This document shows positions 2,002-53,949 of a DNA stretch of 64,000 nt, piece after piece. The stretch spans positions 1,788 to 65,787 of the forward strand of contig CAZKPK010000002.1 in the NCBI GenBank assembly GCA_964554645.1, written 5' to 3'. Source of the DNA: an uncultured Candidatus Saccharibacteria bacterium. GTDB lineage: Bacteria; Patescibacteriota; Minisyncoccia; Phycocordibacterales; UBA9973. Under the pieces are notes generated by a model. The model saw nothing but the letters and a program-made list of their open reading frames with translations, ran no database searches and was not told where the DNA came from. Position 1 is the first letter of the stretch. Every line of letters begins with the position of its first letter. Both the position numbers and the translations under genes were made by a program.

Positions 2002-3294
2002 ATGAAAAAATTAAATTTTAAAAAAATTAAGAAAAATAAAGGAGCGGCTATGCTGATCTCTGTCGTCTTTTTTCTTTTTATTTCTTTGGCGATAATTTCT
2101 GGGCTGGTAGGGCCAACAGTGCGTGAATTTAAAAATGTCACGATGAATTTTGATTCAAAAAAATCTTATTTTTTGGCCGAATCGGGAAGCGAAGACGCGC
2201 TTTATCGGATACTAAACAATCTGGCTATCGGGAGCAGCGAAACAATTACTTTAGATTCTAATTCGGCTACGACAACGGTTGACACTATTTTGGGTAATAA
2301 AGAAATTAGTTCACTTGGAGACGTGGGGAGCTTGCAACGAAAGACAAAGCTTGCGCTTTCCACCGGTCCGGGCGCTTCTTTTAACTATGGTGTGCAAGTT
2401 GGACAGGGAGGGCTTGTTTTAGAAAATACCGCCAGAATAACTGGCAATGTTTATTCCAGTGGAACTATCACTGTTTCTGACAATACTGTATATGGTGACG
2501 CTATTTCAGCTGGCGCAACGGGATTAATTAATAATATCCATACCACAGGCTCTGCTTATGCTCATACAATCCAAAATTCCGACATAGATATGGATGCTTA
2601 TTATGCGATAAAAACCAATACCACAGTTGGTGGAACTTCCTATCCAAATAGCCCAGATCAGCCTGTTGCTAGTATGCCGATTTCTGATAACCAGATTGCC
2701 GATCTGGAAGCTGACGCTCTGGCCGGGGGCATTTTCAGTTCGCCTTGTCCATACACGATTAACTCCGATAGAACATTAGGTCCCGTAAAAATAACTTGTG
2801 ATTTGGAAATTAGCGGCGATCCCACCGTTACCCTTAATGGCTCGGTATGGGTTACTGGTAACGTTTTAATACAAAATAGCGCCATTATTGAAGCTTCCGC
2901 CGATTTGGGAAACAAGAGTGTTGCCATTATCGCTGATAATCCAAACAACAGAACATCAAGCAGTCAAATTGATTTAAAAAATAGTTCTCAATTTTCCGGT
3001 TCCGGATCTGCCGGCTCATTTGTCTTTTTGATCTCTCAAAACAATAGCGCTGAATTGGGAGGAGACGAAGATGCTATTTCTATGGACAACTCTTCCAGCG
3101 GGTCTGTAGTTTTGTATGCCGGTCATGGTTTAATAAACATCCAAAATAGCGCTACCTTGAAAGAGGTGACGGGATACAAATTAAAAGTTAAAAATTCAGC
3201 CAATATTATTTATGATACTGGATTAACGAGCACTTTATTCACATCGGGTCCGGGAGGAGGATACGAAATAATTGGCTGGAAAGAAAGTCAATAA
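2002..3294 (+). CDS. PilX-like pilus assembly / tip-associated minor pilin
   Basis: The N-terminal hydrophobic segment is followed by a PilX_N-like motif (FLAESGSEDALYRIL). The rest is a long Ser/Thr/Asn/Gly-rich extracellular region. Confidence 0.5.
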   Translation: MKKLNFKKIKKNKGAAMLISVVFFLFISLAIISGLVGPTVREFKNVTMNFDSKKSYFLAESGSEDALYRILNNLAIGSSETITLDSNSATTTVDTILGNKEISSLGDVGSLQRKTKLALSTGPGASFNYGVQVGQGGLVLENTARITGNVYSSGTITVSDNTVYGDAISAGATGLINNIHTTGSAYAHTIQNSDIDMDAYYAIKTNTTVGGTSYPNSPDQPVASMPISDNQIADLEADALAGGIFSSPCPYTINSDRTLGPVKITCDLEISGDPTVTLNGSVWVTGNVLIQNSAIIEASADLGNKSVAIIADNPNNRTSSSQIDLKNSSQFSGSGSAGSFVFLISQNNSAELGGDEDAISMDNSSSGSVVLYAGHGLINIQNSATLKEVTGYKLKVKNSANIIYDTGLTSTLFTSGPGGGYEIIGWKESQ

Positions 3295-3300
3295 ATTAGG

Positions 3301-3333
3301 TTGTAGTTTCTAGGTTCTAGGTGCTAGAATAGA
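3301..3333. repeat. CTAG-rich intergenic array (ctaggttctaggtgctagaa)
   Basis: Overlapping palindromic CTAG units are seen directly. Related arrays occur at 18141, 42483 and 48601. Confidence 0.5.
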
Positions 3334-3336
3334 CAA

Positions 3337-4104
3337 ATGTCTAAAAAAATTATTATCGGCAATTGGAAAATGAATCCGCCCACCTTGAAAGAAGCGGAGA
3401 AATTGTTTGCTGACGTGGCGAAAGGTGTTTCGGCGGTAAAAAAAACGGAAATCGTCATATGCCCGCCGTTTATCTACTTAAATAAATTAACAAAAATTAA
3501 AACTGATAAAATAAAGCTCGGCGCGCAGAATGTTTTTTATGAAGAGGCGGGGGCTTATACCGGAGAAGTTTCGGCCCTCATGCTAGAGAACATCGGGGTA
3601 AAATATGTTCTAGTTGGACACTCGAAAAGGCGAGAGCTGGGGGAAACGAATTTTGATGTTAACCGGAAAGTAAAAGTTTCACTGCAAGTGGGGCTTGCGC
3701 CGATACTTTGTGTGGGAGAAAATTTACGGGACGAAAATCATGATTATTTTAAGCTGGTCGAGACCCAAGTTGTTGAATCGCTGGAAGGTGTTTCCAAAGA
3801 CTTTCTCTCCAAAATCATCATTGCTTATGAACCCGTTTGGGCGATTTCTACCACCCCCAACCGCCAGGATGCCACCCCGCATGATTCTGAAGAAATGGCT
3901 ATTTTTATAAAAAGAATTCTGGTTGATAAGTTCGGCGTAAAAATTAAAATGCCAAAAATTATTTATGGAGGAGATATAAATGAAAAAAACATCGGGGAGT
4001 TTTTAAAAGCTGGCGGAGTCGAAGGCGCGCTGATTGGTCGCGCGAGCCTAGATGTGAAAAAATTTATAGAGATTGTTAAAATATGCGAAGCCTTGAGCAA
4101 ATAA
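3337..4104 (+). CDS. tpiA: triosephosphate isomerase
   Basis: The N-terminal IIIGNWKMN motif and the active-site HSKRR and VGE motifs match TIM. Its length is also right for TIM. Confidence 0.9.
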   Translation: MSKKIIIGNWKMNPPTLKEAEKLFADVAKGVSAVKKTEIVICPPFIYLNKLTKIKTDKIKLGAQNVFYEEAGAYTGEVSALMLENIGVKYVLVGHSKRRELGETNFDVNRKVKVSLQVGLAPILCVGENLRDENHDYFKLVETQVVESLEGVSKDFLSKIIIAYEPVWAISTTPNRQDATPHDSEEMAIFIKRILVDKFGVKIKMPKIIYGGDINEKNIGEFLKAGGVEGALIGRASLDVKKFIEIVKICEALSK

Positions 4105-5180
4105 AAGACATCAAAGACAAAACTGTAATCGTGCGGGTGGATTTTAACGTGCCCATCAAGAACGATGAAGTAGAAGATGATTTTAAGATTAGAGCGGCAT
4201 TACCGACGATAAATTTTTTATTAAAAAAAGGCGCGAAAATTATTTTGGTTACCCACTTAGGCAAAAGCCTGTCCGCCTCTGGCGGAATGGTAGCCAACCT
4301 AGAGCCAGTTATTCAACGTTTTTGGGAAGTGGCTAAGTTTAAAAAAGATCGGATAGAATTTTTTGAAAATGCGCGAAAATTTCCGGGGGAAGAAAAAAAT
4401 GACCCTGTTTTTGCAAAAAAGCTTGCCCGCTTGGGTGATATTTATGTGAACGACGCTTTTTCTGTTTCACACAGAGAACATGCTTCTATTGTTTTATTAC
4501 CAAAACTTCTTCCATCTTATGCCGGATTCCAGCTGGAGAAAGAAATAAAAAATTTATCTCGCGCTTTTGAAAAACCGAAGCACCCGTTTTTATTTATTTT
4601 GGGCGGCGCGAAGTTTTCTACTAAAATACCCTTGATTGAAAAATATTTAAAATTGGCCGACCAAGTTTTTGTCGGTGGAGCGTTGGCGCATAACTTTTTT
4701 AGAGCGAAAGGTTATGAGGTGGGGCAATCTTTTATCAATGATCCAAATTATGAAATTAAAAAATTGTTTAAAAATGAAAAATTAATTTTACCAGTTGACG
4801 TGATTGTAAGGTCTGGGAATAAATTAATTAATAAAAGAGCAAATCAGGTTGGGAAAAATGAAATTATTTTAGATATTGGGGCTGAAACGGTAAAAAATCT
4901 GGCATCCATGATTAAAAAATCAAAATTTATTCTCTGGAATGGTCCGCTTGGTAAATATGAGGATAAGGGAGGCAAAGCCACTAAACAAGTTTTAGAATTC
5001 GTCCTAAAATCAAAAGCGGAAATTATAATTGGGGGAGGGGATATCGTGTCTGTTTTTTCTTCGCTAAAACCTAGTAGCTCTCAGCTAGAACCTAATTTAT
5101 TTGTATCTACTGGCGGCGGAGCGACACTGGATTTTCTGGCAAATGGCACTCTCCCGGGCATCAAAGCCCTCCTTCGTTGA
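4083..5180 (+). CDS. pgk: phosphoglycerate kinase
   Basis: The N-terminal KDKTVIVRVDFNVP motif matches PGK. The gene sits immediately downstream of tpiA. Confidence 0.85.
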   Translation: MRSLEQIKDIKDKTVIVRVDFNVPIKNDEVEDDFKIRAALPTINFLLKKGAKIILVTHLGKSLSASGGMVANLEPVIQRFWEVAKFKKDRIEFFENARKFPGEEKNDPVFAKKLARLGDIYVNDAFSVSHREHASIVLLPKLLPSYAGFQLEKEIKNLSRAFEKPKHPFLFILGGAKFSTKIPLIEKYLKLADQVFVGGALAHNFFRAKGYEVGQSFINDPNYEIKKLFKNEKLILPVDVIVRSGNKLINKRANQVGKNEIILDIGAETVKNLASMIKKSKFILWNGPLGKYEDKGGKATKQVLEFVLKSKAEIIIGGGDIVSVFSSLKPSSSQLEPNLFVSTGGGATLDFLANGTLPGIKALLR

Positions 5181-15258: not shown

Positions 15259-15273
15259 TAACCTATTTGATAA

Positions 15274-15295
15274 TAACAAACGGTCGTATACTAAT
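15274..15295. promoter_or_regulatory. 3'-side copy of the paralog-specific direct repeat TAACAAACGGTCGTATNCTAAT, bracketing the PaaX-like gene at 15306-15878
   Basis: The near-identical 22-mer recurs at 15895-15916, on the 5' side of the same gene. Both contain a near-palindromic ACGGTCGT core. Confidence 0.5.
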
Positions 15296-15305
15296 GGCAT
15301 AGATA

Positions 15306-15878
15306 TCAGGAAAGCTCAAATTTTTTTATCAAATGCAGTTCGTTATCAATTTCATCCGCTAAAACGAAACGAATATATTTTCTCGCATTATATAATTCAA
15401 TTAAAAACTCTAGTTCTTTGTTGCACGGATAAGGATGTACGAACACTGATTTTTGCAATTCAATAAAACCAAGTCCATGAAAATGTAATCGTAATGAGTC
15501 TCTCAATTTTCTAATTTTTTCAGGGATATCAAACATAACAATTCTCCACTTTCTATCCCATTCAATCGGTTTTTTTATTTTTAGTTGATCTATATTAAAC
15601 ATAAGTGCTTTCTTTTTTCCATTTTCATTTAAAACCAAAGTCGTTGTTCCATCTTTATTGTGTTTTTCTGAAACTAAATGTGATCTGTAAAGGGAATTTA
15701 TAGCTCTGTTTAAAGCACGGCGTTCTATATTTTTAAACTCTTTCGGTATTTGACGCAAAATCCAGAAGTGTCTTTTTACTGATCCGTTTAAACCAAGCGC
15801 AATACCGGCCAAAAGAAGTATCATAACTTTTTTCTTTACTATACCCATTCTCATATTTTTATTATTTTTATTTCCCAT
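15306..15878 (-). CDS. PaaX-like winged-helix transcriptional regulator (paralog 1 of 4)
   Basis: It has the motif WDRKWRIVMFDIPEKIRKLRDSLRLHFHGLGFIELQKSVFVHPYP. From memory of E. coli PaaX this matches WDGKWLLLLSEGLDKSTLADVKKQLIWQGFGALAPSLMASP. An N-terminal wHTH-like region is also present. Confidence 0.6.
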   Translation of the reverse strand: MGNKNNKNMRMGIVKKKVMILLLAGIALGLNGSVKRHFWILRQIPKEFKNIERRALNRAINSLYRSHLVSEKHNKDGTTTLVLNENGKKKALMFNIDQLKIKKPIEWDRKWRIVMFDIPEKIRKLRDSLRLHFHGLGFIELQKSVFVHPYPCNKELEFLIELYNARKYIRFVLADEIDNELHLIKKFELS

Positions 15879-15894
15879 ACTTTCATTATACCAT

Positions 15895-15916
15895 TAACAA
15901 ACGGTCGTATGCTAAT
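15895..15916. promoter_or_regulatory. 5'-side copy of the direct repeat for PaaX-like paralog 1, in the divergent promoter region shared with dut
   Basis: See the entry for 15274-15295. Confidence 0.5.
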
Positions 15917-15972
15917 ATCGAATTATGACTAGTTGGTTTTGGGCGGGGAAAGATATATAATAAAACGATAAA

Positions 15973-16395
15973 ATGATAATCAAAATCAAGAAACTGAAAG
16001 AGAAGGCAAAACTGCCGAAGTATCATCATCCGGGAGATGTGGGGATGGATTTATATGCGATGGAGACGGTGACGATAAAGCCCGGTGAGCATTATCGTTT
16101 CTGGCACGGCTTTGCGCTGGAATTTCCGGAAGGTTATGGGGCTATTATTATGGATAAAGGCAGTATTTCTAAAGCAGGATTTGCTCATATGGGCGGAGTC
16201 TATGATGCGGGGTATAGAGGCGAATACAATACGCTTTTAGTAAATTTATCGGACAAGAGTTATACTTTTGAAGCGGGTGATAAAGTTTCGCAACTGGTGA
16301 TTATCCCGGTGGTTATTGGAAAGTTAAAAGAGGTTGAAAAATTGAATGCATCTGCTCGCGGTGAGGGAAAGTTTGGAAGCACCGGCAGAAAATAA
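15973..16395 (+). CDS. dut: dUTP diphosphatase
   Basis: A 140-aa protein with the dUTPase motifs (HPGDVGMDLYA, GVYDAGYRGE, SARGEGKFGSTG). Confidence 0.85.
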   Translation: MIIKIKKLKEKAKLPKYHHPGDVGMDLYAMETVTIKPGEHYRFWHGFALEFPEGYGAIIMDKGSISKAGFAHMGGVYDAGYRGEYNTLLVNLSDKSYTFEAGDKVSQLVIIPVVIGKLKEVEKLNASARGEGKFGSTGRK

Positions 16396-18140: not shown

Positions 18141-18193
18141 TTAAATTAGGTGCTAGGGACTAGTTGCTAGAACCTAGAACCTAGAACCTAACT
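18141..18193. repeat. CTAG-rich array (three tandem ctagaac units)
   Basis: Seen directly; it is related to the arrays at 3301, 42483 and 48601. Confidence 0.5.
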
Positions 18194-19992: not shown

Positions 19993-20409
19993 ATGAAATC
20001 AAAAGAAGCAAAACCGTCTGAGGTAGGAGATAATAAAACAACCCCAGAGGCAAAGTTAACAAAACAAGAAATCTTGGATCTAATTGAAAAAGCATCTCAC
20101 CAAACTTGGATGAGGCAGGCGCATAGGGACAAAGGAACCAACATGGATAAACTTTCACAGGCAGTGTCAGATGGCGATCGCGAAAGGGCGGCAGATGCTT
20201 GGAAAGAGCTAGAGAAAGAAAAACCAAAAACTCGGGCGGAGGCTGTGACTCTGCTGGCTAGAAGGTCTCACGAAATGTGGTTGGCCCATAAAAGAGTGCT
20301 TGTTTCTACAGAAGAATTTGATCTTAATCCAAATGATCATGACCGCGAGCGGGCAGAAGATATCATAAAAGCGCTTGAAGTTCGCGGAGTCTTATCTTAT
20401 GGAGAATAA
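19993..20409 (+). CDS. hypothetical protein (138 aa, charged and helical)
   Basis: The ORF is open but has no recognisable motifs. Its end overlaps the ileS start. Confidence 0.4.
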   Translation: MKSKEAKPSEVGDNKTTPEAKLTKQEILDLIEKASHQTWMRQAHRDKGTNMDKLSQAVSDGDRERAADAWKELEKEKPKTRAEAVTLLARRSHEMWLAHKRVLVSTEEFDLNPNDHDRERAEDIIKALEVRGVLSYGE

Positions 20410-23400
20410 TCAGGATAAAAACAAAAAATCAGACGCAACGTTGCGCGAAGAAAGTGTTTTGGAATTTTGGCGGGAAAATAAAATTTTTGAGAAATCTTTA
20501 AAACAGACAGAAGGGAAAAAAGAATTTATTTTTTTTGAAGGTCCGCCGACAGCGAATGGCAAGCCGGGAATTCATCATCTGGAAGCGCGAGCGTTCAAAG
20601 ACGCTATTCCAAGATATAAAACGATGCAAGGTTTTTACGTCCGTCGCAAGGCCGGGTGGGATACGCACGGGCTAGCGGTAGAAATTCAGACAGAGAAAAA
20701 ACTCGGCCTGAATTCTAAAAAAGCGATTGAAAAATACGGCATCGCCAAGTTCAATCGGGAATGCAAAGAAAATGTTTGGGAATATTTGGATGTTTGGAAT
20801 AAATTTACCGAGCGGATCGGTTTTTGGGTGGATCAGGAGAATCCGTATGTGACATACCGCAATGACTATATTGAATCTGCCTGGAATGTGCTAAAAAAAA
20901 TAAATGACCGGAATTTGCTTTACAAAGATTATAAAGTAGTGCCGTGGTGTCCGAGATGCGGGACCGCTCTTTCCACCCACGAGCTGGTGCAAGGATACGA
21001 GGAGGTGAAAGATTTGTCGGTTTATGTGAAGTTTAAGGTGCGTGGGGGCGGAAATGATGCTTCTGCGGGGTCGCTGTCTCCGTCTGCTGACGGAGCGCTG
21101 CCTCTCGGCTCGTCAGCCTGCGAGACACCCCGACAAAAGCACATTTCCGCCCCCACTTTCGTTCTTGCCTGGACGACGACGCCGTGGACTTTGCCGGGAA
21201 ATGTGGCGCTGGCAGTAGGGAAGGACATTGATTATGTGAAAGTTAAAACTGGAAATGAAATTTACATTTTGGCCAAGGAAAGACTTTCAATACTCACTGA
21301 AGCTTATGAAATTGTTGGAGAAATAAAAGGCAAAGATTTGGTAGGTTTAGAATATGAACCGCTTTTTCCATTTCTGCCTGCCATTATTTCTGAAGCCGAA
21401 AAACCTAAATTAGAAAAAGCTTTTAAAATATATGAAGCGGATTTTGTAAATATACAAGATGGCACAGGGATTGTGCATACGGCGGTAATGTATGGACAAG
21501 ACGATTTTGAACTGGGCGCCAAAGTCGGTTTGCCCAAGCATCACTTGGTTAATCTTGAAGGCAAATTTATAAAAGGCACAGGATTTTTAGAAGGAAGATT
21601 TGTAAAAGAAAAAGACGAAAACGGCAAACCGACTATAGATATAGATATTATCAAATATCTAACGGACAAAAACTTATTTTACAAAAAAGAAAATTATGAA
21701 CATTCCTATCCGCACTGCTGGCGCTGTCACACGGCGCTTATTTATTACGCTCGCGATTCTTGGTATATCAAAATGTCCGACCCGACAATAAAGGAACAGA
21801 TGATAAAAGAGAATAAAGGGATAAATTGGGAGCCGTCATATATTCAAGAAGGGCGTTTCGGCGAATGGCTTCGGGAGATAAAAGACTGGGCAATATCTCG
21901 CGAAAGATATTGGGGGACGCCGCTACCGATATGGGCTTGCGAATCCTGCCAGAAAATCAGCGTCATCGGAAGCATTGCGGAATTGAAAGAAAAAACAAAA
22001 AAGTCCGGCAATACATATTTTGTGATGCGGCATGGGGAAACTACCACCAATTTGAGAAATTTGGTTAGCACGGTAATGAATAGCGGGAGCCATTTGACCG
22101 ATGAAGGAAAAAGAAAGACAAGAGGAATGGGCGAACTTCTGAAGAAAAAAGGTATTGATCTGATTTTTACTTCGCCGTTTAATCGCGGCAGAGAAACGGC
22201 AAAAATAATGCAGGAAATTATAGGTATTGGTGACGAAAATGTTTGTGAAGATAAGCGCTTGGGAGAGATGAATGTAAAAAGTTATGAAGGAAGAACTTGG
22301 GCCGAATATCACAACGACTTTCCGAAAACGCCAGAATATTTTGATAAAGCAAAAAACGGAGATGAATCTTTGAGAGACATAAAAAAAAGAATGATGGATT
22401 TTCTTTTTGAGCTTGAAGAGAAATATCAGAACAAAAAAATTCTCATTATTACTCACGGCGGGCCGACCTGGCTTATGGCCGCGGGGGTGAAAATGTTTGA
22501 TGTGGAAAATACGCTTGCGATGGTTCGCGATAAAGAAAATTTTCATTATCTCAGAAATTCGGAAATACAAAAATTATCATTCACACCTTTTCCTCATGAT
22601 CAATTTGGCGATTTTGACCTGCATCGTCCATATATTGATGAAGTTCCACTTGTTTGTTCCCACTTGACAGGCTCAGGACAGGCCTGTGGCGGAAAATTGA
22701 CGCGCGTTCGCGAAGTGATGGATGTTTGGTTTGATTCCGGTTGTATGCCATTTGCGCAAGATCATTATCCTTTTGACGCCAAAAAAATTCTATATCCGGC
22801 AGATTTTATTTCGGAAGCAATCGATCAGACCCGCGGATGGTTCTACACTTTGCATGCCATCGGAGTGCTGATGGGTCGCGGGAAAGTTTTTAAAAATGTA
22901 ATCTGCCTCGGGCTTCTTTTAGACGCTCAGGGCAAAAAAATGTCCAAATCGCTGGGTAATGTCGTTGATCCTTGGGTGATGATGGATAAATATGGCGTGG
23001 ACACTTTGCGTCTTTGGATGTATTCCGTGAATCAACCGGGCGAATCGAAAAATTTTGACGAGAAAACGATATCTTTGCTTCATCAGCAAGTTTTCGGCTT
23101 GCTTTATAACGTGCTAGCTTTTTACGAACTATATCGAGATAAAGAAAAAGAGATAAATGATCGTCCCAAATCCAAAAATATTTTGGATATTTGGATCTTG
23201 GTCAAATTGGATGAATTAGCAAAATTAATTACCGCGAATCTTGATAATTATAAATTACTTGAACCAACCAGAGCGCTACGAGATTTTATCGGCGATCTTT
23301 CCACCTGGTATCTGCGTCGTTCGCGGGAACGGATCAAAGAAGGAAGCAATGAAGCTAAGCAGACTTTATATTTTGTCCTGAAAACTCTTGCCACAGTCCT

Positions 23401-24022
23401 GGCTCCTTTCGCGCCTTTTGCGGCAGAAGATATTTGGCTGAAATTAAGAAATAAAAATGACGCAGAGAGCGTGCATTTAGTTAAATGGCCAAAAATGCCA
23501 AAGAGTTTCTTTGGCATTTTTGGCAGCAAAGAAAATAAAACTTTGGAAAACATGCAAACAGTCAGGAAAATTGTCACCCTTTGCCTTGAAGCCCGCCAAA
23601 AAGCAGGGATAAAAGTTCGCCAGCCTCTGGCTTCACTTAAATACAAAGTTAAAAACAAAAAATTATCAGGCGAGTATCTTGATCTGATAAAAGATGAGCT
23701 TAACGTGAAAGAAATTATCGAAACAGACTTAATTGAAAATGAAGTTGAACTGGATGTTAAAATCACAGAGGAATTAAAACAGGAAGGAAATTATCGAGAG
23801 CTGGCGCGGGCTTTGCAAGATATGCGCAAAAAACTTGGATTAACTCCGGATGATACAATTTCACTTGTTTTTGAAGCGAATGACGCAGGCAAAAAGTTAA
23901 TTGAAAAATTTGCAACCGATCTTAAAAAAACTGTTTTGGTGTCCAAGATAGAATTTGGAAATAATAATGGCGAAGAAATAAAAATAGATGATTTGGTGTT
24001 TAAAATAAAAATTTATAAGTAG
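20399..24022 (+). CDS. ileS: isoleucine--tRNA ligase with two in-frame insertions: a GC-rich segment and a histidine-phosphatase-like domain
   Basis: It has a HIGH-type motif (PPTANGKPGIHHLEARA), WTTTPWTLPGN, LHRPYIDE, DVWFDSG and KMSKSLGN. The likely start is the ATG at 20399. Residues spanning about 22010-22560 read RHGETT...SPFNRGRETA...ITHGG, which is PGM/His-phosphatase-like. Confidence 0.8.
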   Translation: MENNQDKNKKSDATLREESVLEFWRENKIFEKSLKQTEGKKEFIFFEGPPTANGKPGIHHLEARAFKDAIPRYKTMQGFYVRRKAGWDTHGLAVEIQTEKKLGLNSKKAIEKYGIAKFNRECKENVWEYLDVWNKFTERIGFWVDQENPYVTYRNDYIESAWNVLKKINDRNLLYKDYKVVPWCPRCGTALSTHELVQGYEEVKDLSVYVKFKVRGGGNDASAGSLSPSADGALPLGSSACETPRQKHISAPTFVLAWTTTPWTLPGNVALAVGKDIDYVKVKTGNEIYILAKERLSILTEAYEIVGEIKGKDLVGLEYEPLFPFLPAIISEAEKPKLEKAFKIYEADFVNIQDGTGIVHTAVMYGQDDFELGAKVGLPKHHLVNLEGKFIKGTGFLEGRFVKEKDENGKPTIDIDIIKYLTDKNLFYKKENYEHSYPHCWRCHTALIYYARDSWYIKMSDPTIKEQMIKENKGINWEPSYIQEGRFGEWLREIKDWAISRERYWGTPLPIWACESCQKISVIGSIAELKEKTKKSGNTYFVMRHGETTTNLRNLVSTVMNSGSHLTDEGKRKTRGMGELLKKKGIDLIFTSPFNRGRETAKIMQEIIGIGDENVCEDKRLGEMNVKSYEGRTWAEYHNDFPKTPEYFDKAKNGDESLRDIKKRMMDFLFELEEKYQNKKILIITHGGPTWLMAAGVKMFDVENTLAMVRDKENFHYLRNSEIQKLSFTPFPHDQFGDFDLHRPYIDEVPLVCSHLTGSGQACGGKLTRVREVMDVWFDSGCMPFAQDHYPFDAKKILYPADFISEAIDQTRGWFYTLHAIGVLMGRGKVFKNVICLGLLLDAQGKKMSKSLGNVVDPWVMMDKYGVDTLRLWMYSVNQPGESKNFDEKTISLLHQQVFGLLYNVLAFYELYRDKEKEINDRPKSKNILDIWILVKLDELAKLITANLDNYKLLEPTRALRDFIGDLSTWYLRRSRERIKEGSNEAKQTLYFVLKTLATVLAPFAPFAAEDIWLKLRNKNDAESVHLVKWPKMPKSFFGIFGSKENKTLENMQTVRKIVTLCLEARQKAGIKVRQPLASLKYKVKNKKLSGEYLDLIKDELNVKEIIETDLIENEVELDVKITEELKQEGNYRELARALQDMRKKLGLTPDDTISLVFEANDAGKKLIEKFATDLKKTVLVSKIEFGNNNGEEIKIDDLVFKIKIYK

Positions 24023-24045
24023 TATACTGATACTGAATTAGTATA

Positions 24046-24066
24046 ATAGACACGGCCGTTGTTATT
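24046..24066. promoter_or_regulatory. 5'-side copy of the paralog-specific direct repeat ATAGAYACGGCCGTTGYTATT (palindromic ACGGCCGT core) for PaaX-like paralog 2
   Basis: It is repeated at 24671-24692, downstream of the gene and upstream of recO. Confidence 0.5.
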
Positions 24067-24084
24067 ATGTTATTATAATTTAAT

Positions 24085-24645: not shown

Positions 24646-24670
24646 GTACGCAATTATTGTAGATAATACT

Positions 24671-24692
24671 ATAGATACGGCCGTTGCTATTT
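24671..24692. promoter_or_regulatory. 3'-side copy of the paralog-2 repeat, about 30 nt upstream of the recO start
   Basis: See the entry for 24046-24066. Confidence 0.5.
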
Positions 24693-24720
24693 TACTATCA
24701 GTCTCTGAGGAAGAAACCTA

Positions 24721-25302
24721 ATGCATCACATTTATCACACGGAGGGAATAATCTTGGGGAGCAAAAATTTCGGAGAAGCCGGAAAATATTATCATATTTT
24801 TACCCGTGATTTGGGAATGATAACAGCTGGAGCTCAAGGGGTGCGCAAGATGTCTTCCAAGCTCCGTTTTGTCTTGCAAGATTTTGCCTGTCTTAAAATC
24901 GATTTGGTGCAAGGCAAGAATATCTTTCGGGTAACGAATGCATCCAAGACGGGCATTTTAGAGCAAGTTACTAAACAACCGGAAACTTTTAAAGTTTTTA
25001 CAAACATCACGCGCTTGCTGAAACGTCTGCTGGCTGGTGTTGAGCCGAACGAAACGCTGTTTGTGGATTTGCTCCGCAGCCTATCGGTTTTAGAGAAAGC
25101 CGAAACCAAAGAAAATCTGCGGAATATTGAAGCAATTATTGTTTTGCGCATCTTGGATAATCTGGGGTATATAGGTGAAAATGAAATATTGCAGAGTCTT
25201 ACAAAATCTCCATTTGAAGAGAACCTGATATTTGAAGTTTCAAAAAATAGAAGCAAAGTATTGCGCCAAATCAATAAAGCTCTTAAAGAGACGCATTTAT
25301 AA
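24721..25302 (+). CDS. recO: DNA repair protein RecO (short form without a C-terminal zinc finger)
   Basis: It has the N-terminal OB-fold pattern (EGIILGSKNFGEAGKYYHIFTRDLGMITAGAQGVRK) and a helical C-terminus. It is 193 aa. Confidence 0.6.
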   Translation: MHHIYHTEGIILGSKNFGEAGKYYHIFTRDLGMITAGAQGVRKMSSKLRFVLQDFACLKIDLVQGKNIFRVTNASKTGILEQVTKQPETFKVFTNITRLLKRLLAGVEPNETLFVDLLRSLSVLEKAETKENLRNIEAIIVLRILDNLGYIGENEILQSLTKSPFEENLIFEVSKNRSKVLRQINKALKETHL

Positions 25303-28586: not shown

Positions 28587-29086
28587 TGACAACTTGCACT
28601 TTAGGATTTTTATTTAAAAATGGGAAGATAATTCTCGCAAAAAAGAAGCGTAAATTTGGTGTAGATAAATGGAATGGATACGGAGGTGTAATGGAAAAAG
28701 GGGAAACAAAAGCAAAATGTCTTGCGCGTGAGACGAAAGAAGAATGTGGAGTGATTATTAGGTTAGAGAAATGTAAAGAATTGGGATATATAGTTTTCTC
28801 TTTTGAAGGCAAAAGTGAACGAGATATGAAGGTATATATGTATCGGGTAGATGAATTTTTGGGCGAACCAGAGGAATCAGAAGAAATGGGTGAGCCAAGA
28901 GAATTTGATGTGGATAAAATTCCATATAATGAAATGATAGTCGGGGATGATAAATTTATTCCCTTTGTTGTTGAGGGTAAAAAATTTGAAGGTAGGATTT
29001 ATTTTTCGGAAAATGGAGAAAAATTGCTAAGGTATAAGGTCTTTGAAATAAAAAACGATAAAGACAATGAAATTAAATTAAAATAA
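28586..29086 (+). CDS. NUDIX hydrolase
   Basis: It has the Nudix box GGVMEKGETKAKCLARETKEECGV. Confidence 0.8.
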   Translation: MTTCTLGFLFKNGKIILAKKKRKFGVDKWNGYGGVMEKGETKAKCLARETKEECGVIIRLEKCKELGYIVFSFEGKSERDMKVYMYRVDEFLGEPEESEEMGEPREFDVDKIPYNEMIVGDDKFIPFVVEGKKFEGRIYFSENGEKLLRYKVFEIKNDKDNEIKLK

Positions 29087-29127
29087 TTAAGTTATTTTAT
29101 TTTAATTTAATTTCATTGTCTTTATTC

Positions 29128-29152
29128 ACGCTATAGCGTAATAATAGACAAT
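29128..29152. promoter_or_regulatory. 5'-side copy of the paralog-specific direct repeat ACGCTATAGCGTnnTnATAGACAAT (palindromic CGCTATAGCG core) for PaaX-like paralog 3, overlapping its promoter
   Basis: It sits immediately upstream of an extended -10 (ttgTATAAT at 29154-29162). It is repeated at 29786-29810. Confidence 0.55.
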
Positions 29153-29153
29153 C

Positions 29154-29753
29154 TTGTATAATGTAAATATGGGGAAATTGGAAAAAGAATTTAAGAAAAG
29201 GGAAAGAAAGGCTAATATTCAAAAGATTATTCTTTCAAGTATTGCCACAGTTGGACTTTTGAGTGTGGCAGTTTTGGCGCCGAATGCTCTACAGGCTTTA
29301 AAATTTTTCGGTATTGAACCAAAAAGTAAATGGCAAAAATATAATATTAATCACAGCGTTAAAAGATTGAAAGATCATGGTCTTATCTGTTTTGAAACAA
29401 CCAGTAGGGGGACTTTTACGCGCCTTACTCCAAAAGGGGAAGATAAGTTGAGAAAATTTAGACTTTTAGGTTATAAACTTAAGAAACCAAGAAAGTGGGA
29501 TAAAAAATGGCGTATGCTTATTTTTGATATCAAGGAAAAAAGAAAGGGAACAAGAGATAAAATTCGCTTTACCTTAAAAAGAATTGGATTTTTGCGTCTT
29601 CAAGATAGTGTTTGGGTTTATCCTTATGACTGCGAAGATCTAGTAACTCTAATGAAAGCTGATTTTAAAATCGGAAAGGATTTACTTTATTTAATAGTTG
29701 ATACCATTGAAGGGGATACAAAAATAAAAAATTATTTTAAACTTCCTATTTAA
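29154..29753 (+). CDS. PaaX-like winged-helix transcriptional regulator (paralog 3 of 4); the track start is a TTG, and a more likely ATG lies at 29169 (possibly leaderless)
   Basis: It has the family motif WDKKWRMLIFDIKEKRKGTRDKIRFTLKRIGFLRLQDSVWVYPYD. Confidence 0.6.
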   Translation: MYNVNMGKLEKEFKKRERKANIQKIILSSIATVGLLSVAVLAPNALQALKFFGIEPKSKWQKYNINHSVKRLKDHGLICFETTSRGTFTRLTPKGEDKLRKFRLLGYKLKKPRKWDKKWRMLIFDIKEKRKGTRDKIRFTLKRIGFLRLQDSVWVYPYDCEDLVTLMKADFKIGKDLLYLIVDTIEGDTKIKNYFKLPI

Positions 29754-29785
29754 TAATTAATTTAATATTATTATTGTTTATAATT

Positions 29786-29810
29786 ACGCTATAGCGTGGT
29801 GATAGACAAT
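29786..29810. promoter_or_regulatory. 3'-side copy of the paralog-3 repeat, about 60 nt upstream of the downstream NUDIX gene and followed by a tagaat -10-like hexamer
   Basis: See the entry for 29128-29152. Confidence 0.55.
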
Positions 29811-29873
29811 ATTTAGAATATTTAGTTTACCTTTCCATTGATAATTATGTCTATTTTGTGATATATTTTATTC

Positions 29874-30305
29874 ATGCAAAAGGGAATTGATTACATTGGA
29901 ATTTCTGTGGTTTATTTTTGCCACGACGGCAATGGTAAGGTATTGTTGGCTAAAAGGGGAAAAAACGCCAGAGATGAACGAGGTAATTGGGATATAGGGG
30001 GAGGTGGAGTGGAGTTTGGAGATACCGCTACCAATACTTTAAGAAAAGAAATCAAGGAAGAATATTGTACCGATGTTTTGGATTATAAATTTCTGGGATA
30101 TCGAGACGTGCATAGAGAACAGAACGGCAAAAAAACTCACTGGATTACACTTGATTTCAAAGTTTTCGTTGATCCCAAAAAAGTAGAAAATGGCGAACCG
30201 CATAAATTTGATGCTTTAGAATGGTTTACGTTGGAAAATCTACCTTCACCAATACATTCTCAGTTGCCAAATTTTTTAAAATTATATAAAGATAAATTAA
30301 AATAA
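29874..30305 (+). CDS. NUDIX hydrolase (MutT-like)
   Basis: It has the Nudix box GGGVEFGDTATNTLRKEIKEEYC. Confidence 0.8.
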   Translation: MQKGIDYIGISVVYFCHDGNGKVLLAKRGKNARDERGNWDIGGGGVEFGDTATNTLRKEIKEEYCTDVLDYKFLGYRDVHREQNGKKTHWITLDFKVFVDPKKVENGEPHKFDALEWFTLENLPSPIHSQLPNFLKLYKDKLK

Positions 30306-37083: not shown

Positions 37084-37142
37084 GTGAAATATCTTAACAG
37101 ATACAACCTTATTTCGCAACCTTCTGTTGACACTGCACTTAC

Positions 37143-37181
37143 TTCTACTACAAAAACGGTCGTTGTTATGGTAGAATTTAC
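37143..37181. promoter_or_regulatory. 5'-side copy of the paralog-specific direct repeat TTCTACYAYAAAAACGGTCGTYRTTAYRGTAGAAT for PaaX-like paralog 4, including an extended -10 (tgGTAGAAT)
   Basis: It is repeated at about 85% identity at 37791-37828, downstream of the gene. Confidence 0.5.
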
Positions 37182-37186
37182 ATGTT

Positions 37187-37780: not shown

Positions 37781-37790
37781 TTTTTAATAG

Positions 37791-37828
37791 TTCTACCATA
37801 AAAACGGTCGTCATTACAGTAGAATCCA
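37791..37828. promoter_or_regulatory. 3'-side copy of the paralog-4 repeat, facing the 3' end of the convergent recA
   Basis: See the entry for 37143-37181. Confidence 0.5.
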
Positions 37829-37850
37829 CACAAGTTACAAAAGTAAAGTT

Positions 37851-38975
37851 TTAGGTTTCTTCCGCGAATTTCTTCTTGATTTCTTTCAAAATCTGATCTG
37901 AGATTTTTTTATTTTCTTTCAGAAACGTGCGAGTGGAATCATAACCCACGCCCAGTTTTACCTTGTCCGCCGTAGCTTTGGCGGAGGAGGATTCACTCGG
38001 CATACTCGCCTTCGCCGAGGCTATGACGGGCAAGTAGAAATACGAATTCCCAGTTTTTTCGATTATTTTAAATCTTTCTCCGAGCGCCATAATTTCACCT
38101 TCTTTAGAAATACCCTCATTGTAAATAATATCAAATTCTGTCTGTTTGAATGGAGCGGAGACTTTATTTTTCACCACTTTGACACGAGTGCGTGAGCCCA
38201 CGACTTCCTCTCCTTTTTTGATTTGGGCGATTTTGCGGATATCCAGCCGGACGGAGGTATAAAACTTCAACGCCTTGCCTCCCGGAGTCGTTTCCGGGTT
38301 GCCGAACATCACTCCAATTTGCATTCTGATTTGATTTATAAAGATAACAACGGTTTTGGATCTGGCGACAATGGCAGTCAATTTGCGGAGCGCTTGAGAC
38401 ATCAGCCGGGCTTGTTTGCCGACATGATAGGCGCCCATATCGCCTTCGATTTCGTCTTTTGGGGTGAGCGCCGCCACCGAATCGATCACAATAACATCGA
38501 TCTTGCCGGTGCGCACCAAGCTCTCTACTATTTCCAGCGCCTGTTCGCCGTTATCTGGCTGGGAAATAAGCAATTCATTTATGTTCACTCCGAGCTTCTT
38601 TGTATATTCAGGATCCATTGCGTGTTCAGCGTCTATATATGCGCAAACGCCCCCTAGTTTCTGCGCTTCCGCCACGATATGAAGGGACAATGTTGTTTTT
38701 CCGGAAGATTCAGGTCCGAATATTTCAATGATTCGGCCACGCGGTATTCCGCCTACCCCCAAAGCCATATCCAGGCCGATAGAACCGGTCGGAATTACAT
38801 TCACATCTACTTTCGGCGAGTCGCCAAATTTCATTATTGATCCTTCTCCAAACTTGGTTTGGATTGATTTTAGGGTGTCTTCAAGCACCGCTATTCCCAT
38901 AGTTTTATTTTCTTTTTTTTCCCCGCCTGCAACGCTATGCGTAGCATTGCGGGCAGGTTTTTTCTTATTTATCAT
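37851..38975 (-). CDS. recA: recombinase RecA
   Basis: It has the Walker A motif [10 protein letters not shown] and [13 protein letters not shown] (a loop L2 region). The N-terminus extends beyond the usual RecA start, so the true start may be internal. Confidence 0.9.
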
Positions 38976-42502: not shown

Positions 42503-42615
42503 GGGCTAGTTTCTAGTAAAAATTCTTGCTTTTGATTAAAGAATATGCAATAATTGACCTGTGGAGTTTTCTCCGCAAGTCTTATCTTCTAGAACCTAGT
42601 AAACTAGCTGCTAGA
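42483..42615. repeat. CTAG-rich intergenic array
   Basis: It contains ctagtttctagt...cttctagaacctagtaaactagctgctagaacctaa. Confidence 0.5.
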
Positions 42616-42882: not shown

Positions 42883-43100
42883 TTTAGTTTACATCTGTTC
42901 TTTATTTTTTTATTCGCTGCATTACAAATTGTTTTTAAATTGTGCTGACTAGCGAGGAGCATATGAAAATAAAATTTTCGTAATGTCCGAGCGACGTCGA
43001 AAATATTGCACGCAATATTATTATTTATTGGCGGATAAAAAATAGAGATAGAAAAAAAATACGCTTTTAGTCAAGTCGAAACTAATTAATGGCGTAGAAT

Positions 43101-43134
43101 CCCTCACCAAATTTTTAGAAAAATTTAGTGAGGG
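43101..43134. promoter_or_regulatory. 16-bp inverted repeat with a 2-nt loop (ccctcaccaaattttt-ag-aaaaatttagtgaggg), 20 nt upstream of the surface-protein ATG
   Basis: The arms are near-perfect with one mismatch. The element lies in the 5' leader or operator position of the 43155 gene. Confidence 0.5.
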
Positions 43135-43154
43135 ACAAGAATTAGAAAAAATTT

Positions 43155-46100
43155 ATGAGTAAATTATTAAAATCAAAATATCTTCTTGGAATTATGCTTG
43201 TTGCAACTCTTGCCGTTGCTTTCGTTTTCGCAATGTTTGCGACGACAGCTTTTGCGCAAACTGCTTGCTCAACAGGCACGACTACACTAAGAGTAGGTTC
43301 GAAAGGTGACGCAGTTAAGTGTCTTCAGTCCGCTGTTGGAGTAACTGCCGATGGTAGCTTCGGTCCAATCACCAAAGCCGCCGTGCAAACTTGGCAAACT
43401 TCCAAAAGTTTAGTGGCTGATGGAATATTCGGCAGATTGTCCCGAGCCGCTTTCACGGGTGGCACGGTTACAGTAAGTGGAACGACTCTTCCAGCAGGCT
43501 GTACTTCAACTTCCGGATATAGTCCTACGACTGGAACAAAATGTGATACTGCCGTTGCGGTGTCCACGACTCTTCCAGCCGGCTGTACATCGACGGCAGG
43601 ATACAGTCCTACCACTGGTACCAAATGCGACTCTGGCGGCACAACCACCACTACGACAAATCCTACTGGTCCCGTATCAGTTGCGCTTGCAACGGATAAT
43701 CCTGCATCCCGTTCCGTGACAACCACGGAAGCTGGCGCTGATTTAGCGCATTTCTCATTCACAGGTTCTGGGACGGTTACGAATATCACTTTGAAGCGTA
43801 CTGGTATTTCTGCCGATGCTTCTCTCTCAAGCGTCTACCTCTATGATGGAGCCCTTCGTTTGACGGATGCCGCTTCGGTATCGAGTGGCAGTATGATTAC
43901 CTTCAATGACCCCAACGGTCTCTTTGTTGTCAATGGCTCAAGGACCATTTCCATCAAATCTGATATGGCAGGAAATTCTGGCGAAACCATTGGTGTTGCC
44001 TTGGTTTCATTCACAGCTTCCGGTCAAGCTATTGTTACACTCAGTGCTCCGCTTTCCGGTAATTTGATGACGGTTGCTTCAGCAACTCTGGCTGGAGTTT
44101 CGTTCGGCACCATTACCCCTGCGGCCAATGCTAACTTGACTCCTGATAACGATGTTATTGTCTGGCAGAGCACAGCTGCAATTACCACTCGCGATGTATG
44201 GCTATCTCGCTTTACAATTCGTGAAGTCGGCTCAATCGCAAAGACCGATATTTCCAATCTTCGCTTGATAATTGATGCGACGACGGTGGCGACAGTGGCA
44301 AATCCAGATGCAAACGGTTATTCAACTTTTGCTCTTACTTCACCGCTAAAACTTATAACCGGTTCCCATACCTTCAAAGTTTTAGCTGATGTTACGGGAG
44401 GTTCATCTCTAACCTTTACTTTCTCCATAAGAAACAGAACAGATATCGGTTTGGTGGACAGCCAATACAATGTAGGCTTCTTGACCTCCACCGTTGTCGG
44501 TTCTCTGACTGCCGGCCAACAGACAATTTCAACTGGATATGTCACGGTCCAAAAGGCGACCGACTCTCCAACGAGCACGATTGTTTTGGCTGGTACGGAT
44601 GTGGTTTTGGGACGCTTTACAGCTAAAACATACGGCGAGAAAGTTAAGGTTGATACTATGCTGGTTGATTTCTCGGGTACTTCCGGCACGACCCTTCGCA
44701 ATGGACGCATCTTGGTTGATGGTCAGCAAGTTGGTTCAACCACTACCATCAATCCCGCATCGACCGGTACATCATTTAATGTAAATCATACTTTCTTGCC
44801 TGGCGCTACTGCCATCATTGAAGTTCGCGCTGATATTTACAACAATGATGCTGATGCTCTTCCTGCTTACGCGGCTGGAGACACTATTCAAGTAATTTTG
44901 TCTACCGGTGTCAACAATGCTCAAGGACTAGTATCTGGGGATGCTACTCTGGATGTTCCTACAGCAAATGTTAATGCCAATAGCCTGACTGTGGGTTCCG
45001 GAAGCATCACTCTTGCCAAAGACCAGGTTTACGGTAACCAATCAGTGGTTGTTCCTACGACGGCAACTCTGCTTGGTTCTTGGGTTTTGACTTCAGGCAC
45101 AACTGAAGCTCTAAACCTCGATACTATTCAGGTTGACCTTGCTTTTCTTAATGAATTTGCGGCGGCTGACCTCTCTAATGTCTATGTGATGTATGGTTCT
45201 AAGATCACTTCCAGCAAAGCGACAGTTTCAGCTACGGCCGGGGCAAACACTTGGAATATATCCGAAGCGATGGCGGTTAATAGCACAATGACTTTCAAAG
45301 TATATGGCGATATTGCGACTGGCGCTGTGGTTGATACTGTAAATGCCGACACCGTTATCCCGTCTCTCTTGGTTTCCGGTACATCCGCTTCTGGCACAGC
45401 TGTGAATACGAATAGCAATACCGTGCTTGCAGGTCAGACAATTACCGCGGTAAACTCGGGCTCGCTTACGGTATCTCTTGACGCTAACACTCCAATAGCC
45501 GCGCAGGTAGTGGCTGGAACTACCGATTCAGGTGGTTCTCTTAAGATTAAACTTGCCGGTACCAACGAAGATCAATATGTAAAGACTGTAAGGATTTACG
45601 CAAATACCAGCGCTAACTCAGCGGCTATCTCTTCAATGAATCTTGCCTGGTCTGCGACTTCCAATGGAGCTTACGCTACTGTTGGGCAGGATCAAACATT
45701 GACTAACGACGGCACCAATCCTGGTTACAGCGTTTGGAGCTTAACCGGCGCTAGTCGGGTGACTGTTCCTAAGAATGGTTCAATCTACCTGAAGGTTACG
45801 CCTTCATATGTTTCTTCAGGCCAAACGGAAGTTTCCGGCTTAACGCCTAAACTCTTCTTGGGCGACCTTCAAGCTGAAGGCACATCCCTATTGGCGGCAG
45901 GCGGAACAACTGCTACTCTTATAAACTCAACTGGTATTATCATTCAAGCGAACAGCTCGGCTGTGGCTGGACGCACGTATATTGATTCAACAGAGAATAG
46001 GCTTGCTGCTGCTATAACTGCTACTGCAACAACTATTACTACAGCAGGCGGTCAAACGTTTTTGCCAGGTGATATCATCTTTGTTGATTGGAGTGGTCCT

Positions 46101-48600: not shown

Positions 48601-48668
48601 AGAATTAGGTTTTAGTCACTAGGTTCTAGCTTCTAGTATGTTACTAGTTACTAGCACCTAGAAACTAG
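48601..48668. repeat. CTAG-rich intergenic array
   Basis: It contains cactaggttctagcttctagtatgttactagttactagcacctagaaactagcacctaa. Confidence 0.5.
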
Positions 48669-48681
48669 CACCTAACTAAAG

Positions 48682-52848: not shown

Positions 52849-52861
52849 TAGATTCTACAAA

Positions 52862-52887
52862 AAATCCGCTTTCTGGCGGATTTTTTG
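52862..52887 (+). terminator. intrinsic terminator (aaaatccgc-tttctg-gcggatttttt)
   Basis: It has a stem of 7-8 bp followed by a T6 run. Confidence 0.65.
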
Positions 52888-53306: not shown

Positions 53307-53419
53307 GATAAAAAATATAGAGCTCTGTTTATGATTAAAAATTCTGTTGCTTTTGTGTTTAGGATTACAAATCATTATCGATAGCGGAGAAATAAAAAAC
53401 TAAGATAGTTTTACAAAAA

Positions 53420-53446
53420 ATCCCCATATAGGGGATTTTTTGTTTT
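53420..53446 (+). terminator. intrinsic terminator (atcccc-atata-ggggat followed by a T-run; an A-run upstream makes it potentially bidirectional)
   Basis: It reads aaaaaatccccatataggggattttttgtttt. Confidence 0.6.
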
Positions 53447-53918: not shown

Positions 53919-53949
53919 AACAAATTTTATTATTAGCAAATATATTCGT

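Follow-up and report, generated by a model that had tools for sequence, protein, structure and literature searches.

Patescibacterial mini-PaaX genes are bracketed by paralog-specific palindromes, putative operators of winged-helix/Cas2-like proteins

The 64,000-nucleotide stretch of contig CAZKPK010000002.1 from an uncultured Candidatus Saccharibacteria bacterium (Patescibacteriota), called the window throughout, contains four paralogous genes, P1 to P4, each lying between two copies of a repeat of its own (Table 1). P1 is situated between a dNK-like kinase gene and dut, P2 between the isoleucyl-tRNA synthetase (IleRS) gene and recO, P3 between two NUDIX genes and P4 between the elongation factor P (EF-P) gene and recA. 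With a profile built from the four proteins, no fifth paralog was detected in the window. A previous reading of this DNA, made from its letters only (hereafter the sequence-only reading), had proposed that these genes encode PaaX-like regulators and that the repeats around each of them are paralog-specific and have a palindromic core.

All four proteins matched the Pfam family PaaX_M (PF20803), with E-values of 2e-21 to 5e-9 and scores of 36.6-76.1 bits (gathering cut-off 24), and they share the motif FD[IV]PE...R..LR...G....SV, P2 to P4 being 26-35% identical to P1. In the AlphaFold2 model of P1 (predicted local distance difference test score, pLDDT, of 81), a winged helix precedes a domain with a ferredoxin-like beta-alpha-beta-beta-alpha-beta order of elements. 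When this model was compared with the PDB by Foldseek, E. coli PaaX (8a39) came first, then Rv0674 and then the Jannaschia PaaX-like protein 3l09; the alignment with 8a39 is full-length (E = 6.6e-5) but its TM-score is low (0.39). The N-terminal half of the model also matches the winged helices of MarR, PadR and RosR, and the Pfam PaaX N-terminal domain gave no match in P1 to P4. Taken alone, the C-terminal domain matches many Cas2 chains (5zyf, 5xvn, 6jhz and others), with 20-28% identity and a root-mean-square deviation of 2-4 A. Indeed, P1 and P4 pass the Cas2 model TIGR01573 (27.8 and 24.8 vs a cut-off of 24.5), only the N-terminal half of the profile being matched, and in a profile alignment the invariant FDI corresponds to the YDV beta1 aspartate motif of the Cas2 structure 3exc, a position at which the PaaX-like Rv0674 has no aspartate. 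PADLOC, run on the window, returned only Cas2 and LmuC-like winged-helix noise.

The homology to the central domain of PaaX, put forward in the sequence-only reading, was therefore confirmed by PaaX_M in all four proteins and by PaaX 8a39 as best PDB match. The label of PaaX-like regulator holds for this domain and for the fold, but these proteins are not full PaaX. The PaaX_C effector domain of Pfam gave no match, the proteins (186-199 amino acids) stopping directly after the Cas2-like domain, and with the NCBIfam PaaX equivalog TIGR02277 we obtained about 26-43 bits for P1 to P3 and no match for P4, far under the cut-off of 264.55. P1 to P4 are winged-helix/Cas2-like proteins that stand outside the PaaX equivalog, and we call them "mini-PaaX" since they are PaaX-like at the DNA-binding end yet failed equivalog membership and have no PaaX_C. 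The family is large: a full HMMER scan of clusters at 50% identity gave 5,936 members at E <= 1e-3, 3,923 of them at E <= 1e-10, and the best 150 matches are mostly 180-200 amino acids long. Orthologs of P1 and of P2, in each case 65-88% identical, are found in many genomes of Nomurabacteria, Paceibacteria and Parcubacteria, and both co-occur in the same genomes.

The repeat pair of P1 measures 22 nucleotides (nt), its copies (TAACAAACGGTCGTAT[A/G]CTAAT) being 95% identical and 621 bp apart from start to start; the corresponding values are 35 nt and 625 bp for P2, 48 nt and 658 bp for P3 (palindrome ATTGTCT..CACGCTATAGCGT..AGACAAT) and 43 nt and 648 bp for P4 (palindrome TTCTAC..AACGGTCGTT..GTAGAA). 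The coordinates given in the sequence-only reading proved right, and in the 64 kb the cores belong to the flanks of their genes. We counted 4 matches to the core AACGGTCGT for 0.24 expected by shuffle and 2 matches to CGCTATAGCG for 0.04 expected; the one extra match to ACGGCCGT is no more than chance would give, and the same is true of the one to the 16-nt P1 pattern. No credible further copy of any site was detected in the window with patterns of 16-27 nt allowing 3 mismatches, and an unbiased repeat scan of the whole window again picked up the P1, P3 and P4 pairs. As to the palindromic core, each repeat is indeed palindromic, but the palindrome is imperfect and extends over the whole repeat, well beyond a core. 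Because each repeat is itself palindromic, the two copies form inverted repeats in addition to direct ones.

The same arrangement was looked for in 80 homolog-encoding loci from GTDB species genomes of Patescibacteria (472 kb in total), by comparing 120 nt from either side of the gene (before the first ATG and after the stop codon) and using mismatched loci as a null. The best ungapped 5'/3' score had a median of 22 over the 80 loci for a null mean of 8, and 41 of them were above the 99th percentile of the null. When 160 nt were compared on each side, 70 of the 80 loci scored at least 14, so that the prediction of matched flanking repeats around homologs elsewhere was borne out. The matched elements are 26-48 nt long in most loci. 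In 50 well-paired loci, perfect palindromes make up about 40% of the copies (for instance TCCCAGCAATAGCACGCTATAGCGTGCTATTGCTGGGA, present on both sides in locus L034), and of the long palindromes counted in the 472 kb (234), 121 are no more than 130 nt away from an end of the PaaX-like gene. Paralogs of the same genome have core types in common (GCTATAGC, CGATCG, CGACCG) and different arms; in some loci (L038, L041, L043) the two copies are inverted relative to each other at their centre. The distance from the stop codon to the 3' copy is mostly 10-70 bp and reaches about 110 bp. We observed this copy in 30 of the 32 loci where the downstream gene is convergent and in 32 of the 39 where it is co-directional, in agreement with the earlier remark that it exists whatever lies downstream. 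Since its presence is independent of the orientation of the next gene, the 3' copy is not simply the operator of that gene. On the other hand, the DNA-repair or nucleotide-hygiene theme that the neighbours in the window had suggested did not hold: the 149 neighbours of the 80 homologs fall in 175 Pfam families with no dominant function.

Some loci showed particular layouts. In L060 (2794-4204), a palindrome ..TATTTTGCTATAGCAAAATA.. occurs at least five times in 1.5 kb, once upstream and four times downstream of the gene, a copy number that differs from the usual two. A 60-nt perfect palindrome of the PaaX type lies directly upstream of a YebC gene in L015 (343-402), and a 38-nt one, also perfect, lies 3 nt past the uvrB stop codon, facing a convergent gene, in L068 (5688-5725); both differ from the site of the local gene and are probably sites of paralogs encoded elsewhere. 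L074 carries tandem PaaX-like genes (2941-3537 and 4146-4763), the second with its own 3' palindrome (4800-4829).

We then compared proteins with their sites. Among 23 P1-type proteins with legible flanking sites, residue 123, the third after FD[IV]PE, is Arg with A-CGACCG-T in 11 of 12 cases and Lys with G-CGACCG-C in 11 of 11, which gives the rule Arg for A.T and Lys for G.C at the base pair +/-4 from the dyad. Protein identity is 0.728 within site states vs 0.718 between them, and on a neighbour-joining tree the site state switches at least six times with the residue switching in step. Across diverse paralog families the counts are 31 for G.C/Lys, 1 for G.C/Arg, 14 for A.T/Arg and 3 for A.T/Lys (45 of 49 following the rule; Fisher p = 1.4e-8, not phylogeny-corrected), so that a co-variation between paralog and repeat, which the sequence-only reading had suggested looking for, does exist. 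In a prospective test on the P2 family, the residue was read first from five database proteins and the flanking DNA was fetched afterwards: the three proteins with Arg had A..T and the two with Lys had G..C, in both copies (5/5). With the relatives L201-L203 and P2 of the window included, the rule holds for 9 of 9 members of this family. Linkage between gene and site hardly explains such a covariation, because a single codon pairs with two sites that lie on opposite sides of the gene, and because no other binary column of the protein is as strongly associated with the site state. To our mind this covariation is the strongest evidence that the proteins would bind the palindromes, and we place, by inference, helix 1 of the Cas2-like domain with its N-terminus on the dyad, and the winged helices on the paralog-specific arms.

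The position of the 5' copy is also very regular. In an alignment of 13 P1 orthologs, all 13 have ..TTAGCATTAG-N4-5-CGACCG-N4-5-TTAATGCTATAAT followed by exactly 6 nt and the ATG, and all 13 have TGnTATAAT, 6 nt and the ATG, which implies a leaderless mRNA. The extended -10 is within the right arm of the site, and a -35-like TTAGCA is within the left arm. P2 orthologs present TGnTAT[CT]AT, 6 nt and the ATG, the centre of the site being 27.5 nt before the ATG. The overlap of the 5' copy with the -35/-10 region, noticed previously for the window genes, is thus exact in the P1 orthologs and found again in those of P2; in the window, TATAAT or TAGAAT stands 5-9 nt ahead of the ATG in all four genes. 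In P1 orthologs the 3' copy starts 0-10 nt past the stop codon and is a fuller palindrome (ATTTAGCA...TGCTAAAT), from which the -10 has been lost by one base (TGCTAAAT vs TGCTATAAT).

In 87 distinct P1-type sites, from which we took pair counts, the outer inverted repeats are invariant (TAGCAWTA / TAWTGCTA), the pair flanking the core R-CGACCG-Y covaries (G-C 35, A-T 28) and an inner segment of 3-4 nt is conserved, asymmetric and non-pairing; such an anatomy looks like the shape of a protein site rather than that of a hairpin. Within a locus, the 5' and 3' copies have changed in concert: at variable columns their identity is 0.68 vs 0.45 +/- 0.03 after permutation. An early idea, that the arms change in a compensatory manner between the 5' and 3' copies, failed on these 87 sites. 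Helical phasing was uninformative, the copies in P1 orthologs being spaced by 603-622 bp with offsets out of phase.

A metagenome scan for CGACCGNTNNTTAWTGCTA gave 120 contig stretches and, after chance matches had been filtered out, 77 P1-type sites. Thirty-five are beside a P1-like gene, 24 are too near the end of a contig to be judged and 18 are single, with no PaaX-like open reading frame (ORF) nearby. All 18 single sites are of the 3' type. They lie at 10 convergent, 8 co-directional and no divergent junctions, for a baseline of 18% convergent and 19% divergent; the co-directional ones are mostly closer to the stop codon of the upstream gene, and several single sites occupy the entire spacer of 40-60 nt between two stop codons. 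Their neighbours are functionally unrelated (SpoU and Fpg, CCA-adding enzyme and ABC ATPase, VanY and ScpB, as well as a TMEM175 potassium channel, a reverse transcriptase and YafQ), which again speaks against a DNA-repair theme. The SpoU/Fpg site recurs in several contigs, from genomes that are about 70% identical. There are about one or two single sites per P1 gene and none in the window. The few conserved extra sites of P1 are therefore gene-end elements and not promoter operators. Concerning the specificity of the repeats at the scale of a genome, the flanks are matched to their paralog as had been proposed, but they are not exclusive, given these P1-type single sites elsewhere in related genomes.

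Table 1. Mini-PaaX genes of the window and the site copies that flank them (positions are those of the window)
Feature	Position	Strand	Remarks
P1 3' site copy	15274..15295	none	10 nt after stop; between convergent P1 and dNK-like kinase genes
P1 gene	15306..15878	minus	190-amino-acid winged helix + Cas2-like (PaaX_M) protein
P1 extended -10 TGGTATAAT	15885..15893	minus	6 nt upstream of ATG (leaderless layout); likewise in 12 orthologs
P1 5' site copy (putative promoter operator)	15895..15916	none	also upstream of divergent dut (15973-16395)
P2 5' site copy	24039..24073		core ACGGCCGT; centre 29 nt before ATG; TATAAT follows at 24074-24079
P2 gene	24085..24645	plus	186 amino acids
P2 3' site copy	24664..24698		upstream of recO (24721-25302)
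P3 5' site copy	29108..29155		38-nt palindrome 29115-29152, core CGCTATAGCG; TATAAT 29157-29162
P3 gene	29169..29753	plus	likely start ATG 29169; ORF open from TTG 29154
P3 3' site copy	29766..29813		palindrome 29773-29810; then TAGAAT; upstream of NUDIX gene (29874-30305)
P4 5' site copy	37140..37182		palindrome 37143-37176, core AACGGTCGT; TGGTAGAAT 37169-37177, 9 nt before ATG
P4 gene	37187..37780	plus	197 amino acids; most divergent of the four paralogs
P4 3' site copy	37788..37830		palindrome 37791-37824; keeps TAGAAT; faces 3' end of convergent recA (37851-38975)

Two further observations concern the sites of the window. The stop codon of the NUDIX gene upstream of P3 lies inside an AT-rich, near-perfect palindrome of 68 nt (29058-29125); its outer arms, ATAAAGACAAT and ATTGTCTTTAT, correspond to the P3 half-site and place a third AGACAAT beside the P3 5' copy. 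Moreover, the outermost arms of the P1 sites (15891-15920 and 15268-15300) have drifted from the family consensus TAGCA/TGCTA, with GATA..TGGT in the 5' copy and GCCA..TATC in the 3' copy; one copy's left arm and the other's right arm are complementary, which over 4 nt may be due to chance.

Taken together, these data lead us to favour, with moderate confidence, a model in which mini-PaaX proteins are autorepressing dimers that have one operator at their promoter and a second one at the end of their gene, with a boundary or auxiliary role. The dimer would bind the 26-48-bp palindrome, the Cas2-like dimer being placed on the dyad, with the third residue after FD[IV]PE tracking the base pair 4 bp from the centre, and the two winged helices would contact the paralog-specific outer arms. 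The 5' copy would cover the -35/spacer region of the gene's own extended -10 promoter, with the centre of the site 26-30 nt before the ATG, and transcription from this promoter would produce a leaderless mRNA; once occupied, this copy would exclude RNA polymerase and shut off the gene. An occupied 3' copy may form a boundary that blocks transcription into or out of the regulator gene, and/or serve as an auxiliary operator, looping then raising the occupancy of the weaker promoter copy. The layout argues well for dimer binding and for self-repression through promoter occlusion, the self-repression itself being presumed by analogy with PaaX. As for the second copy and the single sites, a role as boundary (roadblock or insulator) and/or as looping operator is only hinted at, by their position at gene ends regardless of the orientation of the next gene. 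Looping and roadblock/insulation, both raised in the sequence-only reading, are possible; the antisense promoter that it also raised is plausible for P4 only, whose 3' copy keeps TAGAAT. In the main context of P1, the 5' site could also act on the divergent dut promoter.

This model is close to what is known of PaaX from E. coli and Pseudomonas, the repressor of the phenylacetate catabolon. In E. coli, PaaX shuts down its own Px promoter by occluding RNA polymerase and its operator, TGATTC-N27-GAATCA, consists of inverted hexamers 27 bp apart (PMC9493321). Both features are consistent with a Cas2-like dimer on the dyad and winged helices on the arms. The two kinds of protein share the PF20803 dimerisation domain; in the P1 model this domain follows a winged helix, and the similarity to the fold of PaaX extends over the full length. 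A long operator with widely spaced inverted half-sites and the occlusion of their own promoter would also be common to both, being predicted for mini-PaaX from the layout of the sites. In contrast, mini-PaaX proteins have about 190 amino acids instead of about 305, do not have PaaX_C and hence the phenylacetyl-CoA sensor, and retain the Cas2 beta1 aspartate; a genome encodes many of these paralogs, every one with a site to itself, a second copy of the site stands beyond the stop codon, single copies are found after the 3' ends of other genes, and no aromatic-catabolism genes are nearby. With Cas2 (TIGR01573 / PF09827) they have in common the fold of the C-terminal domain and the YDI-type beta1 aspartate motif, but in mini-PaaX this domain is fused to a winged helix and apparently reads the sequence at the dyad. 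In the Cas1-Cas2 complex, the Cas2 dimer lies along duplex DNA. No CRISPR array, searched as short spaced repeats, was found in the window, where the neighbours are housekeeping genes and where cas1 was not screened for.

A repressor gene between its own operators also recalls the immunity region of lambda and the looping systems lac O1/O2/O3, gal OE/OI and deo, in which a strong distal operator can help a weaker promoter-proximal one. The distal site of mini-PaaX differs in being intergenic, just after the stop codon, and looping leaves the single sites at the ends of other genes unexplained. For a boundary, comparable systems are mTERF1, TTF-I/Reb1 and repressor roadblocks, which have sequence-specific protein sites at the ends of transcription units, as predicted here; for TTF-I, moreover, sites are found upstream of the promoter and also downstream of the gene. 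However, those proteins are unrelated to mini-PaaX, and terminator-like hairpins are often present beside mini-PaaX sites.

Several observations weigh against the autorepression and boundary model. With a crude detector, such hairpins were called at 20 of 39 convergent junctions with long palindromes vs 24 of 103 others; we therefore rejected the idea that the sites replace terminators at convergent junctions, hairpins being commoner and not rarer beside long palindromes. The leaderless layout is found in 21 of 50 diverse loci vs 20% of control genes, and for this reason we claim it just for the P1 and P2 families and the window genes. A generic two-hexamer promoter scan found no promoter above shuffle expectation at the window sites. 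There is no sensor domain in these proteins that would account for relief of repression. Four exceptions to the Arg/Lys rule exist, P4 of the window among them. Finally, many sites are perfect over 34-46 nt and the same on both sides, which exceeds what a protein footprint needs.

These long perfect palindromes, as well as the joint evolution of the two copies, would suit another explanation, that of a mobile or formerly mobile cassette made of site, gene and site, comparable with a target-site duplication or with the repetitive extragenic palindromic (REP) sequences, their REP doublets (REPIN) and the REP-associated tyrosine transposases (RAYT); single sites would then be empty targets or excision scars, and the Cas2-like domain with its beta1 aspartate would cut or help recombination at the palindrome. 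We consider it unlikely, although a mobile cassette, already envisaged in the sequence-only reading, is possible. The alignment of FDI with the catalytic aspartate of Cas2, absent from Rv0674, and the scores of P1 and P4 with TIGR01573 go in this direction. In one contig, L194, we observed dut, one site, the kinase gene and tmk in synteny with no P1 gene, and the site is a hybrid with a 5'-type left flank and a 3'-type right arm. Such a layout is that left by an excision, but also that left by a plain deletion between direct repeats of 30-40 bp; both fit. P1-like modules with both sites are also found in at least three other conserved contexts, that is at least four in all, and in L027 and L034 the recA-efp slot holds a different paralog in the opposite orientation. 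Like the REP elements, single sites occupy "safe" 3' intergenic spacers.

Against mobility, the dut-P1-(kinase)-tmk context is kept in about 20 contigs, and P2 remains linked to IleRS and/or a gene of the metallo-beta-lactamase (MBL) fold plus recO down to 66% identity; the conserved synteny of P1 and P2 indicates that inheritance is mostly vertical. No recombinase or transposase is present, single sites are few, and their conservation at orthologous junctions such as SpoU/Fpg argues for a function and not for scars. Hopping between pre-existing single sites was not retained as an idea, since the alternative slot examined, in genomes where P1 is in another context, carried no single site. In addition, the centrally inverted copies mentioned above are not produced by a simple target duplication. 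The comparison with REP/REPIN and RAYT is instructive: there too a vertically inherited single-copy gene lies between two cognate palindromes, other copies stand in 3' spacers of convergent genes and each paralog has its own repeat family. Nevertheless, mini-PaaX is not an HUH/Y1 transposase (Pfam, NCBIfam and PADLOC gave only PaaX_M, Cas2 and winged helix), two flanking copies and about one or two single ones replace the tens to hundreds of REP copies, and the 5' copy doubles as a putative promoter operator. In a stronger form, to which we give little credence, the gene and its sites would be a self-contained element that inserts into, or excises from, a palindrome of about 40 bp recognised by its winged-helix/Cas2-like protein, duplicating all of the palindrome. 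If true, this duplication would be formally like that of the repeat when CRISPR spacers are integrated, PaaX-type regulators, Cas2 and the recognition of palindromic CRISPR repeats would have a living link in this family, and the single sites would be empty targets.

It is also improbable that the 3' copy is in general the operator or promoter of the next gene, mini-PaaX being an ordinary local regulator of recO, NUDIX genes and others, even if this may be valid in individual co-directional cases. After the P3 3' copy come TAGAAT and a NUDIX gene in the same direction, after that of P2 comes recO, and downstream of P2 orthologs an MBL-fold gene usually precedes recO; the P1 5' copy adjoins the divergent dut promoter. 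But the presence of the 3' copy before convergent genes speaks against this explanation. Furthermore, in P1 orthologs it is specifically the 3' copy that has no -10, P1-type single sites are never in divergent spacers, which hold promoters only, and the gene that follows P2 orthologs is served by a separate -10, situated some 60 nt or more past the site.

The least probable account, in which the palindromes work as hairpins, in RNA or in single-stranded DNA, that terminate transcripts or stabilise the 3' ends of mRNA and have an incidental link to the protein, would suit sites that stand at gene 3' ends, could fold in either transcript and show in their 3' copies a weak sense-strand excess of G.T over A.C mismatches (35 vs 15; 20 vs 22 in 5' copies), but no intrinsic (Rho-independent) terminator with GC-rich stem and T-tract was called at the eight window sites while canonical A-tract/T-tract ones exist elsewhere in the window, Rfam gave no matches in the window, the conserved inner segment of the P1 site is non-pairing, the 5' copies are upstream of the inferred transcription start and the residue/base-pair covariation points to a protein that reads duplex sequence.

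Other elements were noticed in the window. The IleRS gene (20375-24022) encodes a synthetase with an inserted His_Phos_1 (histidine-phosphatase) domain at residues 549-712; as this fusion is also present in the relatives L201-L203 and L206, it is a conserved feature of the lineage. CTAG-rich intergenic runs, partly palindromic (e.g. CTAGAACCTAGAACCTAG), are found at 18147-18184, 42583-42614 and 48605-48675 and place stop codons in several frames. A 36-nt palindrome, TCCCTCACCAAATTTTTAGAAAAATTTAGTGAGGGA (43100-43135), directly upstream of an ORF of 1390 amino acids (43155-47327), could be an operator for a regulator encoded elsewhere. Two similar bidirectional A-tract/T-tract terminator hairpins (52853-52885 and 53409-53441) are 556 bp apart, with no ORF of at least 100 amino acids between them; they indicate that canonical terminators exist in this genome and are different from the PaaX-type palindromes. 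Large repetitive protein genes with internal coding repeats occupy 43155-47327, 48978-51545 and 53911-57528, and an ORF of at least 1772 codons (58683-63998) runs past the end of the window.

The architecture of PaaX, its autorepression and auxiliary operators are components already known. A full-text search of the literature returned nothing relevant on PaaX together with Patescibacteria, with CPR bacteria (candidate phyla radiation) or with Cas2. What appears to be new is the truncation to a winged-helix/Cas2-like protein and the expansion of this form in Patescibacteria, the cognate palindrome bracketing every gene, the single sites at gene ends and the Arg/Lys rule, which would place a Cas2-fold domain on the dyad. 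Patescibacteria (CPR) make up a large share of bacterial diversity, with tiny genomes and a regulation that has been little studied, and the mini-PaaX family may rank among their main groups of sequence-specific DNA-binding proteins. Since the site brackets the gene, the probable binding site of each member of the family is known for free, and Arg for A.T, Lys for G.C is a one-residue recognition rule that is directly testable. A Cas2-fold domain apparently reads bases at the dyad of a palindrome, which bears on the origin of the partnership between Cas2-like proteins and palindromic repeats. Finally, the gene-end sites raise two testable ideas, that of transcription-unit boundaries defined by proteins in streamlined genomes and that of a new kind of minimal mobile module.

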